Origin: a phage
Length of the DNA: 64,000 nucleotides
Sequence record: PZ543597.1
Reading direction: 5' to 3' (one strand)
Below, in pieces: positions 53,712 to 56,677 of this stretch. The notes beneath the pieces are model-generated. The model made no database searches, was not told the DNA's origin, and saw only the letters and a list, made by a program, of their open reading frames with translations. The position numbers and the translations under genes were made by a program. Numbering within the stretch: the stretch's first letter is position 1; each line of letters starts with the position of its first letter.

Positions 53712-53784
53712 TGGGAATTAGCCAAGTTGGTAAGGCACTGGATTTTGATTCCAGGATGCAAAGGTTCGAGTCCTTTATTCCCAG
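53712..53784 (+). tRNA. tRNA-Gln (anticodon UUG)
   Basis: acceptor TGGGAAT/ATTCCCA, anticodon loop tTTTGAt, T-loop GGTTCGAGTCC. Confidence 0.85.
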
Positions 53785-53785
53785 C

Positions 53786-53872
53786 GCGAGAATGGCCAAA
53801 TTGGTAAAGGCACAGCACTTAAAATGCTGCGGAATGATTTCCTTGTGGGTTCGAGTCCCACTTCTCGCACCA
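53786..53872 (+). tRNA. tRNA-Leu (anticodon UAA), type II, CCA encoded
   Basis: acceptor GCGAGAA/TTCTCGC, anticodon loop CTTAAAA, long variable arm, 3' ACCA. Confidence 0.85.
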
Positions 53873-53877
53873 AATTT

Positions 53878-53951
<74 letters not shown>

Positions 53952-53961
53952 ATTTAATTTA

Positions 53962-54035
53962 CTCCGTGTAGCTCAGTTTGGTAGAGCGTCTGCTTTGGGA
54001 GCAGAATGTCGTAGGTTCAAATCCTGCCACGGAGA
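53962..54035 (+). tRNA. tRNA-Pro (anticodon UGG)
   Basis: acceptor CTCCGTG/CACGGAG, anticodon loop TTTGGGA, T-loop GGTTCAAATCC. Confidence 0.85.
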
Positions 54036-54037
54036 CT

Positions 54038-54127
54038 GGAGGCGTGGCAGAGTGGTTTAATGCACCGGTCTTGAAAATCGGCAGTCGCTCCGGCGACTCA
54101 TAGGTTCAAATCCTATCGCCTCCGCCA
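54038..54127 (+). tRNA. tRNA-Ser (anticodon UGA), type II, CCA encoded
   Basis: acceptor GGAGGCG/CGCCTCC, anticodon loop CTTGAAA, long variable arm. Confidence 0.85.
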
Positions 54128-54132
54128 GTTTT

Positions 54133-54208
54133 GCTGATTTAGCTCAGTAGGTAGAGCAACTCACTTGTAATGAGAAGGTCGGCGGTTCGATTCCGTCAAT
54201 CAGCACCA
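54133..54208 (+). tRNA. tRNA-Thr (anticodon UGU), CCA encoded
   Basis: acceptor GCTGATT/AATCAGC, anticodon loop CTTGTAA. Confidence 0.85.
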
Positions 54209-54209
54209 A

Positions 54210-54284
54210 GGCCCTGTAGCTGGAAGGTTCAAGCAAGCGACTCATAATCGCCAGATGGTGGTTCAATTCCACCCAGGGCCACCA
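54210..54284 (+). tRNA. tRNA with CAU anticodon (Ile via lysidine, or Met), CCA encoded
   Basis: acceptor GGCCCTG/CAGGGCC, anticodon loop CTCATAA. Confidence 0.8.
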
Positions 54285-54293
54285 AATTAATTT

Positions 54294-54380
54294 GGGGAGT
54301 TATCCCGTAGAGGTAGCGGTGTGGACTGTAAATCCATTGTCATTGCGACTCGGGTGGTTCGACTCCACCACTCCCCACCA
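54294..54380 (+). tRNA. tRNA-Tyr (anticodon GUA), type II, CCA encoded
   Basis: acceptor GGGGAGT/ACTCCCC, anticodon loop CTGTAAA, long variable arm. Confidence 0.8.
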
Positions 54381-54384
54381 ATTT

Positions 54385-54459
54385 GGATGTGTAGCTCAAT
54401 GGCAGAGCGATCGCCTGTTAAGCGATTGGTTATAGGTTCGAATCCTATCACGTCCGCCA
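54385..54459 (+). tRNA. tRNA-Asn (anticodon GUU), CCA encoded
   Basis: acceptor GGATGTG/CACGTCC, anticodon loop CTGTTAA, T-loop GGTTCGAATCC. Confidence 0.8.
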
Positions 54460-54573
54460 AATTTGTGACAACTGTCACATTAATATCTACTTGACGCGAT
54501 TATAGGGGTTGAACTGATCACTCTTCTCTTAATTTCGTGTGAAGACATCTTGATTGTTGGAGTAGGTATTAAT

Positions 54574-54649
54574 GTGGCCGTAGTTCAGTTGGTAGAACTC
54601 GAGATTGTGATTCTCGTAGTCATGGGTTCGACTCCCATCGGTCACCCCA
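54574..54649 (+). tRNA. tRNA-His (anticodon GUG), CCA encoded
   Basis: acceptor GTGGCCG/CGGTCAC, anticodon stem CGAGA/TCTCG with loop TTGTGAT, discriminator C. Confidence 0.75.
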
Positions 54650-54653
54650 ATTA

Positions 54654-54729
54654 CGGGGCATAGCTCAGAAGGAAGAGCAAGGACCTTCTAAGTCCTAGGT
54701 CGTAGGTTCGATCCCTACTGCCTCGACCA
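54654..54729 (+). tRNA. tRNA-Arg (anticodon UCU), CCA encoded
   Basis: acceptor CGGGGCA/TGCCTCG, anticodon loop CTTCTAA, T-loop GGTTCGATCC. Confidence 0.85.
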
Positions 54730-54747
54730 ATTATAAGTGAGGAAAAT

Positions 54748-55098
54748 ATGAAAGGTAATGTTTATTTAGTAGTTCATGATTTAACATTCTATTTTAATCA
54801 TAATGATACTGTTATTTCTGAACGTGTAATTAATTTGCTTTATCAGCATGCAGATTATGTTTATGTCGAAAACGAATATGGTCATTGGCAATTTCTCAAA
54901 AATCGTTCATTTGGTTTAGATGGTTACGAATATTTTGATCGTAAAGACCTTTTAGATACAATTCCGTTATCTACACAATATCAAAATCATAAGTCTTTAC
55001 ATAAATGCCGGCTAATTCGAAATGCTGAATCCGCGTATGAAGCAATTGATTTGTGGCGTAAACGCCGTGAATATATTGATTCTTTAAAAGAATATTAA
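54748..55098 (+). CDS. hypothetical protein
   Basis: 116-aa ORF with SD (gaggaaa) directly after tRNA-Arg. Confidence 0.6.
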   Translation: MKGNVYLVVHDLTFYFNHNDTVISERVINLLYQHADYVYVENEYGHWQFLKNRSFGLDGYEYFDRKDLLDTIPLSTQYQNHKSLHKCRLIRNAESAYEAIDLWRKRREYIDSLKEY

Positions 55099-55405
55099 GA
55101 AACCGGGTCGCTACCGGTAAGTCGTCGGACTGATGTTCCCTGGAGTATAGTTTCCTCCCACAGTTTTACTGTGTTCTGGCTCTTTACTATCACAGCAGAA
55201 ACGGCGCACCGAATTATCGATTCGAGGAAATATCTTTGCCGTAAGCCGAGTAGCGTTTTTGACGGAACGTTCGGATATGGTCGAGATATGGCCTTTTAAA
55301 AATATTGAGTAGCGTCAACTACTTAATAACCGGGTTCGAATCCCGGCGTTTCGTACAAACACTTGCCTTAGCAGGTGGAACCCCGACAAGGTTGCCGCAA
55401 GGCTT

Positions 55406-55434
55406 AGCCCCGACCGAAAGGTTGGGGCTTTTTG
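55406..55434 (+). terminator. rho-independent terminator (copy 1 of a repeated 31-bp terminator)
   Basis: agccccgacc-gaaa-ggttggggct + ttttt. Confidence 0.7.
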
Positions 55435-55435
55435 G

Positions 55436-55443
55436 TATAAATA
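55436..55443 (+). promoter_or_regulatory. late promoter TATAAATA upstream of the internal-protein gene
   Basis: exact TATAAATA 36 nt upstream of the ATG at 55479. Confidence 0.65.
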
Positions 55444-55478
55444 TTAGTATATTAAATCTACAAATTAAAACAGGAAAT

Positions 55479-55955
55479 AAGATGAAATCATATACTCAAT
55501 TTTTAAATGAAGCGGTGTTAAATGAAGCATCTAGCACCGAAATTCAAGCTGTTGCAAAAGCTGCCATTGCCGCGGGTAAATATTCCTATAAAGATGCTTC
55601 TGATGAATCGCGATTCCAGTTTGCACGCGACATGAAAGCGGAAGGATTTACGGGAAATGCAGTTAGTATGGCCTGGAAAAGTTTAGTTGCTACTGGCGCT
55701 GCTTTTGCAAAGGCTTCGGGTAAACCTGCTCCTAAAGCAGATCCTAAAGCGGCACAAGAAAAAAATATCGTTAAAGGAATTATCGCTAAATATGAAGCTA
55801 TCCTTAAAGAGCTTTTAGTAATCAAAACCGAAGGCCAAAAGTTAGCCCGTGCTTATAGTTTCAAAGATAATCCACATGTTCACTCTCTTGAGTATGTTGA
55901 AGACATCCAAAAAATTATTAAAGACCGCATTTGGTCTGCTAAACAAATCAAATGA
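55479..55955 (+). CDS. internal-protein-like head protein with capsid-targeting leader (MKSYTQFLNEA)
   Basis: 158 aa; start at internal ATG with SD aggaaa; leader fits the IP capsid-targeting motif; Ala/Lys-rich body. Confidence 0.75.
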   Translation, partial: KMKSYTQFLNEAVLNEASSTEIQAVAKAAIAAGKYSYKDASDESRFQFARDMKAEGFTGNAVSMAWKSLVATGAAFAKASGKPAPKADPKAAQEKNIVKGIIAKYEAILKELLVIKTEGQKLARAYSFKDNPHVHSLEYVEDIQKIIKDRIWSAKQIK

Positions 55956-55962
55956 CATTCTT

Positions 55963-55990
55963 AGCCCCGACCGAAAGGTTGGGGCTTTTT
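55963..55990 (+). terminator. rho-independent terminator (copy 2 of the repeated 31-bp terminator)
   Basis: same 31-bp hairpin sequence as at 55403-55433. Confidence 0.7.
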
Positions 55991-56080: not shown

Positions 56081-56644
56081 ATGAAAACCTATGCCGAATT
56101 TTTAACCGAAGCAGCAAAATTACCATCTGAAGCAGATCTTACTAAAGTATTCTTCCAATTGGACCCAAAAGACCGCGGCGATTTTCTTAAGTGGAAAGCT
56201 AAAGCTATTGAAATGTACAACATCGATAATAGTTCTTTTACAATGAGTCAAGAAAATAAATTCAATAAAGCATTTTTCAAAATTTCTAAGAAATTGGCAT
56301 CTGGCGCTCAGGTTCCTAAATCTGTGTTAGCTACTCCTGAACGCGCACCTGTTAAAATTTCTAAGAATATGTTCGACACTAAAAAATACGTTAATGCTTT
56401 GAATAAAGCTCTTGATGCATTGGATGATGCAAAGAAGGCAGCCCGCGATCTTCAAGACGTGTACACCGATTTTGACCGCAAAACTAAAGGTTCTATTTCA
56501 AATAGCGAACGCAATAGTGTAAGTGTTTATTCTGATAGCCTTGATGTTCTTGGCGATGCGTATACTGAAATTAAAAATCGTATTAACACTGCATCTAAGC
56601 TAAAAGCTGCTGCAGAAGCTATAATAAGTAAACTAGGTAAATAA
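56081..56644 (+). CDS. internal-protein-like head protein with capsid-targeting leader (MKTYAEFLTEA), IPIII-sized
   Basis: 187-aa ORF; leader MKTYAEFLTEA; SD aaggat. Confidence 0.75.
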   Translation: MKTYAEFLTEAAKLPSEADLTKVFFQLDPKDRGDFLKWKAKAIEMYNIDNSSFTMSQENKFNKAFFKISKKLASGAQVPKSVLATPERAPVKISKNMFDTKKYVNALNKALDALDDAKKAARDLQDVYTDFDRKTKGSISNSERNSVSVYSDSLDVLGDAYTEIKNRINTASKLKAAAEAIISKLGK

Positions 56645-56652
56645 TTTTAAAT

Positions 56653-56677
56653 CCCTATCTAAATGATAGGGCTTTTT
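56653..56677 (+). terminator. rho-independent terminator
   Basis: CCCTATC-taaat-GATAGGG hairpin + cTTTTT. Confidence 0.65.

Follow-up and report, generated by a model that had tools for sequence, protein, structure and literature searches.

Comparative structures for rnaD and rnaC, two putative small RNAs at the distal end of a T4-type phage tRNA operon

The reference record of bacteriophage T4 (NC_000866) has two misc_RNAs directly after tRNA-Arg: rnaD (119 nt), which is labeled "small, stable RNA; species 2 RNA," and rnaC (139 nt), which is labeled "species 1 RNA." Both were seen as late RNAs of unknown role in a dual RNA-seq study in 2022, and a Northern blot with an RNAC probe validates this (PMC9697503). 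In reviews they appear as small RNAs whose role is unknown, and no function has been assigned to either RNA in about 50 years (PMC3014915, PMC9697503); they are among the oldest phage noncoding RNAs without a known function. In three of three lines that were adapting to E. coli ECOR34, a single SNP appeared in rnaD, and it was the only change that the lines shared; the virulence index rose from 0.17 to 0.98 (PMC12685909). In the literature through 2025, taken apart from the primary papers of the 1970s–80s and the 2003 T4 review, we found no structural or functional model for rnaC or rnaD.

We compared these RNAs with a 64,000-nt stretch of DNA (the window) from a T4-like phage of the Tequatrovirus type. 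The window contains 11 tRNA genes (53712–54729, plus strand, identified by both ARAGORN and Rfam), a 116-aa ORF of family phrog_3355 (54748–55098), and then the block of interest, 55100–55400. All of the RNA elements that we locate below are on the plus strand. The first-pass annotation, which was made from the sequence alone, had remarked on a higher GC content than in the flanks, and indeed GC is 0.43–0.49 across 55025–55475 as compared to 0.27–0.33 on either side; the GC-rich stretch that comes after the ORF spans 55099–55435. By alignment, this segment is colinear with the T4 rnaD-rnaC region. Transferring the T4 annotation coordinates to the window, which may put the ends off by 1–2 nt, places rnaD (the ortholog of T4 species 2 RNA) at about 55095–55210, with a conserved core from 55099; a 6-nt spacer, GAAUUA, at 55211–55216; and rnaC (the ortholog of T4 species 1 RNA, 139 nt and tRNA-shaped) at 55217–55355. 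All 139 nt of rnaC are covered, at 99.3% identity (one nucleotide differs), by T4 records that annotate "rnaC" there, and rnaD matches 747 phage records, some of which are annotated "rnaD." As in T4, rnaC lies at the distal end of the tRNA cluster, on the same strand and upstream of the operon's terminator. T4 shares the locus, the order, and the strand with respect to both tRNA-Arg and the terminator, but there rnaD directly follows tRNA-Arg, while in the window the phrog_3355 ORF intervenes.

On this alignment, the block is this phage's copies of T4 rnaD and rnaC, which are already known RNAs; as a genome feature it is ordinary, as both are annotated in the T4 reference record. A stable small RNA was one of the candidates in the first-pass annotation, and this was correct in kind but not in number: there are two RNAs rather than one, and both are annotated in T4. 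Overall, we think it very probable that the tRNA operon ends with this block, which would consist of two processed, stable noncoding RNAs (the rnaD and rnaC orthologs), a trailer that is discarded, and a terminator.

The block is real and noncoding. It was originally described as having no convincing ORF, and a comparative check agrees with this: there are no ORFs of more than 42 aa inside 55100–55400, and no frame is consistently open across the homologs (the longest stop-free stretch switches strand or frame between genomes). An ORF with a TTG start (55305–55955) is a mere upstream extension of a gene whose true start is the ATG at 55482. A megablast search with the block matched 761 phage records, nearly all without meaningful annotation. 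The block is conserved and colinear in more than 740 phage records, and most of these GenBank records call it "hypothetical protein" or leave it blank, which amounts to a widespread annotation error. Those "hypothetical protein" labels are the argument for a block that encodes small proteins, and we set against them the lack of a consistently open frame, the lengths of the rnaC homologs (138–142 nt, with differences that are not multiples of three), and the compensatory substitutions in the helices (see below). Another early suggestion was that an excised mobile element left the block behind as a remnant. We found no direct or inverted repeats flanking the block, and, far from being polymorphic, it is found in all related genomes; the BLASTN comparison that had been proposed to reveal an insertion instead finds the block in place and colinear in related genomes, where it matches T4 rnaD and rnaC. 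We give practically no credence to either the coding or the scar explanation.

Since the block is intergenic, it might also be a cis-regulatory leader of the downstream gene, and the authors of the 2025 experimental-evolution study call the rnaD SNP regulatory (PMC12685909). However, a strong intrinsic terminator precedes the next gene, and the downstream genes differ among phages: there are phrog_2280 cassettes in the window, e.8 in T4, and tRNAs in other genera. Furthermore, in T4 the RNAs accumulate as discrete species (PMC9697503). A leader is very unlikely, and we return to the reading of the block as two RNAs.

To compare structures, we collected homologs of rnaC from GenBank phages, IMG/VR, and metagenomes, which gave 28 distinct sequences (alignment A5) and one later copy (L213). 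The minimum free energy (MFE) of rnaC from the window is -50.2 kcal/mol (z = -4.56 versus shuffled sequence). For 18 of the rnaC sequences, RNAalifold returned a four-way junction with compensatory changes in 23 of 40 pairs. In the alignment of 28 sequences, pairing holds in 92.5% of cells, and double changes are seen in 25 pairs (150 cells). When the columns were shuffled, none of 500 shuffles attained the observed values on four of the five measures, and when the 3' partners were slid by 1–3 columns, pairing fell to 38–50%. From this comparative evidence, rnaC is predicted to be a four-way junction in which a 12-bp "minihelix," like the acceptor and T stems of a tRNA, is joined by two further arms.

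The acceptor-like stem has seven positions and pairs 55218–55224 (nt 2–8 of rnaC) with 55347–55353 (nt 131–137). Nucleotide 1 is unpaired in the model and is A instead of U in one homolog. The third pair of the stem is A-U in 10 sequences and G-C in the other 18. The middle of the stem has two tandem U.U mismatches in the window; Tegunavirus has U-A and C-G there instead, and a Dhakavirus has U-A at one of the two positions. The 3' strand of the stem is contiguous with the T-stem, as in tRNA, and U55354 occupies the discriminator position. The T-arm itself (CCGGG-UUCGAAU-CCCGG) lies at 55330–55346, exactly where the first-pass annotation had drawn a T-arm-like hairpin; it begins one nucleotide after hairpin 2, is 100% paired in the 28 homologs, and has compensatory G-C/U-A changes at two pairs.

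The other two arms have no counterpart in tRNA, and the early observation that canonical D and anticodon arms are absent was accurate. In place of the D-arm there is a long arm of about 70 nt, hairpin 1 (55225–55294), whose base pairs AGG at 55225–55227 with CCU at 55292–55294. In several genera the sequence of its stem has been wholly swapped and pairing is retained, with covariation in helices 3–6; the apical helix is 100% paired, with five of five pairs covarying. A single-stranded, A-rich linker of 8 nt (UUUAAAAA, 55295–55302) comes next, and its AAAA(U) is invariant in the 28 sequences. Hairpin 2 (55303–55328) has a 10-bp stem and a 6-nt loop, with compensatory changes in 8 of the 10 pairs; L213 adds another variant of this stem. 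The direct repeat gatatgg, which had also been pointed out, is indeed present twice (55273–55279 and 55286–55292), but this level of repetition is expected by chance: we observed 6 repeated 7-mer pairs versus 2.5 expected, and 8.5% of shuffles attain that number.

A different fold was proposed at first, with CGGAACG (55263–55269) rather than 55218–55224 as the partner of CGTTTCG (55347–55353). In the window this pairing does form 7 bp, including one G.U. If it were the acceptor stem, then roughly 55262–55354 could be a decayed, class-II-like tRNA or pseudo-tRNA, with hairpin 2 as its long variable arm. This segment has the best Rfam match (to tRNA-Sec, 55262–55354, 17 bits, E = 2.1), folds stably on its own (z = -3.0), and is labeled "tRNA-OTHER" in the record of phage G9062 (at about 55262–55354). 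But the score is far below the gathering score of 47, and ARAGORN, which finds 11 tRNAs in the window, places none of them at rnaC. Also, the proposed acceptor has no compensatory changes and is broken at one position in 11 of 18 sequences; its 5' strand sits in a helix with 100% pairing and covariation at five of five pairs; and the mature RNA that is annotated in T4 starts 46 nt upstream of the pairing. A decayed tRNA is thus highly improbable. What survives of the comparison to a degenerate tRNA concerns rnaC only, namely the covarying acceptor-like stem and the T-arm; a D-arm, a 7-nt anticodon loop, and a tRNA call from ARAGORN or Rfam are all lacking, and the acceptor had been drawn with the wrong 5' strand.

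The two non-tRNA arms of rnaC appear to touch at their tips. The apical loop of hairpin 1 (UUGACG, 55259–55264) and the loop of hairpin 2 (CGUCAA, 55313–55318) are exact reverse complements, which would allow six Watson-Crick pairs, and this is so in all 28 sequences. The loop pair is UUGACG/CGUCAA in 21 sequences, UUGGCG/CGCCAA in the five sequences of a Klebsiella-phage clade, and UUGAUG/CAUCAA in the two sequences of a Tegunavirus clade. In other words, an A-U pair of the putative kissing helix has become G-C in five sequences and a C-G pair has become U-A in two, and there are no uncompensated changes in these loops among the 28 sequences. This covariation consists of two lineage-level double changes. 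When the sequences are folded individually, the MFE structure places both loop sequences at hairpin tips in 23 of 28 cases. The complementarity of the loops indicates a 6-bp kissing interaction that would lock the two arms together. Hairpin 1 has about twice the length of hairpin 2, so that it would have to bend sharply at one of its internal loops for the kiss to be intramolecular. Alternatively, the kiss may be intermolecular, forming a dimer.

To delimit the family, we used R1, a covariance model built on the rnaC sequences. R1 scores 154 bits at 55217–55355 and matches nothing else in the 64-kb window; it matches neither the window's 11 tRNAs nor about 190 unrelated viral loci. A pattern of 27 invariant rnaC positions has no matches in 185,579 bacterial and archaeal species (one genome per species). 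As R1 hits only true copies and the pattern is absent from bacteria and archaea, the rnaC family is, on present sequences, narrow, confined to phages, and distinct from tRNAs. Among the GenBank phages, IMG/VR loci, and metagenomes that supplied our sequences, it occurs in Tevenvirinae of Enterobacterales, in about 11 genera: Tequatro-, Mosig-, Dhaka-, Karam-, Kagamiyama-, Moon-, Teguna-, Gelderland-, Kanagawa-, and Marfavirus, as well as Edwardsiella phage PEi20. Two looser searches yielded little. The pattern CGAGGA...GGCC...GCRTCAAC hit 120 loci in IMG/VR, all but one of which are noise according to R1, and a pattern of loop 1, loop 2, and the T-loop hit 83 loci, with just one new true copy of rnaC. 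The Rfam search that had been recommended for this block did not identify it: apart from noise, there is no family for rnaD or rnaC in 54700–55500, Y-RNA-like families included, either at the gathering threshold or at E ≤ 10, and the matches in the window at the gathering threshold are tRNAs only.

The position of rnaC varies across genera. It is embedded in the tRNA array of Karam-, Kagamiyama-, Moon-, and Gelderlandvirus, with the CCA of one tRNA (Trp, Phe, or Met) 5–6 nt upstream and another tRNA (Gly or Trp) 5–11 nt downstream. In Tegunavirus, it comes after a CDS and 8 nt before tRNA-Trp, and in Mosigvirus loci, rnaC is kept beside a lone tRNA-Arg. In T4-type phages, the ...GCGCACC end of rnaD is followed by a spacer of the kind that comes after the CCA of the upstream tRNA in other genera (AAUUA, AAUAA, or AAUCAA). 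In the arrays of other genera, rnaC takes the place of a tRNA and has tRNA-like spacers around it, and for this reason the machinery that matures tRNAs probably releases it.

The 3' end of rnaC differs between clades. The Klebsiella-phage clade has ...CCGU-CCA, with CCA encoded directly after the discriminator U, while the window and other T4-type phages have ...CGU-ACA, without an encoded CCA. With its ...GUA-CAAA end, which lacks CCA, the T4-type RNA is unlikely to have aminoacylation-type functions. That T4 has tRNA precursors without CCA, and that the host nucleotidyltransferase has a role, is established (PMC11143913). Beyond rnaC is a 3' trailer with small hairpins (55356–55405), which, according to the T4 annotation, is cut off the mature RNA. 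The trailer is about 92% conserved among genomes that have both rnaD and rnaC (fold z = -4.1), and it is missing from the genera in which a tRNA directly follows rnaC. A terminator scan then finds an intrinsic terminator at 55406–55434, with a 10-bp stem, a GAAA loop, and a U-tract (the stem-loop is 55406–55429, followed by TTTTT). The same terminator is annotated in phage D5505. The block had been said to end at a terminator, and the terminator is real, but it lies just beyond 55400 rather than within the block. Trailer and terminator together extend about 80 nt past rnaC.

We propose that maturation could proceed as follows. Both rnaD and rnaC would be co-transcribed with the distal tRNAs. 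RNase P, whose substrates with tRNA-like domains have been catalogued (PMC11143913), would recognize the 12-bp acceptor/T minihelix of rnaC and cleave at the 5' end of rnaC. The same cut would release rnaD, and exonucleases would then trim its short 3' tail to its basal stem. In other genera, the 3' side of rnaC would be freed when RNase P cuts at the next tRNA; in T4-type phages, an endonucleolytic cut in the trailer would free it, followed by trimming to the stem. With both of its ends in helices, each RNA would be stable. Judging by its shape and context, rnaC is probably released in this way, by RNase P and by 3' trimming that halts at the stem.

In contrast to rnaC, which is found across about 11 genera, rnaD was found only with rnaC in the T4-type arrangement, in Tequatro-, Mosig-, and Dhakavirus. 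Its predicted structure has two parts. At the 5' end is a small hairpin, ACCGG-GUCGCUA-CCGGU (55102–55118), with a stem of 5–6 bp and a 7-nt loop; it is 100% paired in 19 variants, and its closing pair is A-U in 10 of them, G-C in seven, and G-U in two. The rest is a long imperfect rod (55121–55209), whose basal stem pairs 55121–55127 with 55202–55209 and leaves a 1-nt 3' overhang. This architecture is identical in the individual MFE folds of all 19 variants and in the RNAalifold consensus. In the consensus, 95.1% of cells are paired, versus 31–53% in the slid controls, and nine pairs are double-changed, which was reached by 2 of 500 shuffles. The basal pairs are mostly invariant and hence uninformative for covariation, and rnaD's own fold is not more stable than those of shuffled sequences (z = -0.19).

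The apex of the rod (55141–55186) is hypervariable, with a mean pairwise identity of 64.4% and a minimum of 28.8%. Across the same 17 genomes, mean pairwise identity is 96.7% for the 5' 42 nt of rnaD, 93.0% for its 3' 24 nt, 98.6% for rnaC, and 91.8% for the trailer. The apex in the window is a T2-type allele rather than a T4-type allele: overall, rnaD is about 80% identical to that of T4, and the ends are near-identical. By these comparisons, rnaD combines a small hairpin with a long rod whose ends are conserved and whose apex is hypervariable. Inspecting the sequences by eye, we saw nothing convincing in the way of tRNA-like features in rnaD or of complementarity between rnaC and rnaD.

What might these RNAs do? 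They may have no function in trans, and instead be cis-acting modules for processing or stability, or inert by-products that persist only through their nuclease-resistant structure. In favor of this, they lie at the end of an operon, ahead of the terminator. On laboratory hosts, T4 remains viable when its entire tRNA region is deleted, which would also fit. Half a century without an assigned function points the same way (PMC3014915, PMC9697503). On the other hand, the loops of rnaC are invariant or change with compensation across about 11 genera and at varied positions in the arrays, which is more constraint than a spacer needs, and rnaC is retained by a lone tRNA-Arg in Mosigvirus loci. The rnaD SNP that was the sole shared change during host adaptation argues against inert by-products as well. 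This is the chief alternative to our own guess, given below, and we consider it doubtful that neither RNA acts in trans.

The convergent SNP suggests a host-dependent role for rnaD, and the hypervariable apex may be related to this role. Our guess, which is tentative and more apt to be wrong than right, is that rnaC is a non-decoding mimic of tRNA that occupies a tRNA-binding protein of the host or the phage late in infection, and that rnaD acts in a host-dependent way, possibly via its apex. A more specific proposal, which we consider improbable, is that rnaC is a tRNA mimic, locked by the kissing loops and matured like a tRNA, that serves as a decoy or inhibitor of a host enzyme directed at tRNAs; that rnaD is a determinant of host range; and that jointly they form an RNA-based counter-defence. 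The enzyme in that proposal could be, for instance, a defence nuclease that cleaves tRNAs, or one that processes or modifies them. The apex of rnaD would, in the same proposal, perhaps be under diversifying selection. If the proposal were true, then rnaC and rnaD would be counter-defence RNAs carried in the tRNA operon of T-even phages. Whatever their function, the comparative structures, chiefly the covarying kissing loops of rnaC and the hypervariable apex of rnaD, are useful new leads, and the comparative model turns the functional question into specific experiments.

Compared to a tRNA, rnaC has an end-to-end acceptor stem of seven positions, a 5-bp T-stem with a 7-nt UUCGAAU loop, a single discriminator-like nucleotide, a tRNA's slot in the arrays, and, in one clade, an encoded CCA. 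Unlike a tRNA, it has a hairpin of about 70 nt instead of a D-arm, and its hairpin 2 has 10 bp and a 6-nt loop instead of 5 bp and a 7-nt loop. It also lacks a variable loop, carries an A-rich linker of 8 nt, and has two arms that are predicted to kiss. Purine and lysine riboswitches likewise have two junction hairpins with complementary loops, and in rnaC these loops covary; however, rnaC would pair all six nucleotides of both loops, its arms are unequal, and the likeness implies no ligand-binding role. A tmRNA would carry pseudoknots and a tag reading frame, and no such frame is present in rnaC; ARAGORN makes no tmRNA call in the window, and the block has no match to the tmRNA models in Rfam. 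Several other RNAs have tRNA-like domains: besides the tRNA-like domain of tmRNA, these include YrlA (a bacterial Y-RNA-like RNA), the tRNA-like structures at the 3' ends of viral RNAs, and mascRNA. By analogy, rnaC probably shares with them the use of an acceptor/T minihelix, set on a non-decoding body, to recruit proteins that process or bind tRNAs.

Rfam has no family for rnaC or for rnaD (the orthologs of the T4 small stable RNAs species 1 and species 2, respectively), and in most of the more than 740 GenBank records, both are either unannotated or covered by "hypothetical protein" CDSs. In one GenBank record, from phage G9062 (L141:473-568 in our collection of rnaC loci from other phages), the 3' part of rnaC is labelled "tRNA-OTHER tRNA-???".

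In Marfavirus-type phages of Klebsiella, CCA is encoded exactly 3' of the discriminator U of rnaC (...CCGU-CCA-AUCA; loci L139:501-643, L149, L150, L151, L155, and L163), whereas T4-type phages have ACA at this position. In this same Klebsiella clade, the kissing loops (the complementary tip loops of rnaC hairpins 1 and 2) are of the UUGGCG/CGCCAA type.

Two segments of rnaC, GCGUUUU (nt 37–43) and GCGUUUC (nt 130–136), are near-duplicates, and because of this, ACGGAACG can pair with either one in Tequatrovirus (55253-55269 versus 55346-55353). The acceptor-like stem proposed in the first-pass annotation is the pairing of ACGGAACG with nt 130–136, which is possible in Tequatrovirus but is not conserved beyond it. 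The alternative pairing of ACGGAACG could make a conformational switch possible in T4-type rnaC.

Between tRNA-Arg and rnaD, the window has an ORF of 116 amino acids on the plus strand (54748-55098) that matches phrog_3355 (E = 8e-53) and has no match in Pfam. Its TAA stop codon (55096-55098) overlaps the 5' end of rnaD as mapped from T4. In T4, T6, and others, this ORF is absent and tRNA-Arg is followed directly by rnaD; T-even phages are polymorphic for the presence of the ORF. On the minus strand, our terminator scan gave a terminator-like score to the 5' hairpin of rnaD followed by TTCTTAATAT (55102-55118). This signal probably arises by chance, from the hairpin lying next to the AT-rich end of the ORF, although it could serve to halt antisense transcription.

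The tRNA array (53712-54729) contains 11 genes (Gln, Leu, Gly, Pro, Ser, Thr, a "Met" with anticodon CAU, Tyr, Asn, His, and Arg), as compared to eight in T4, and lacks a segB homing-endonuclease gene. tRNA-Tyr(GTA) (54294-54380) scores 30.3 bits, which is just above the Rfam tRNA threshold of 29 bits, while the other ten score far higher (59–74 bits). A gap of 114 nt (54460-54573) separates tRNA-Asn from tRNA-His, and a perfect palindrome, TGTGACA-AC-TGTCACA (54464-54479), lies at its start.

Downstream of rnaC and its operon's terminator (55406-55429) are two paralogous phrog_2280 ORFs (55482-55955 and 56081-56644), and behind each of them lies a further terminator (55963-55986 and 56653-56671, respectively) that is a copy or analogue of the first. 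Over 40 nt, the rnaC-operon terminator is 93% and 68% identical to these two. In their layout, these ORFs and terminators resemble "gene + terminator" cassettes that were inserted or duplicated via recombination at the terminator sequence. Neither of the two phrog_2280 ORFs is present at the corresponding place in T4.
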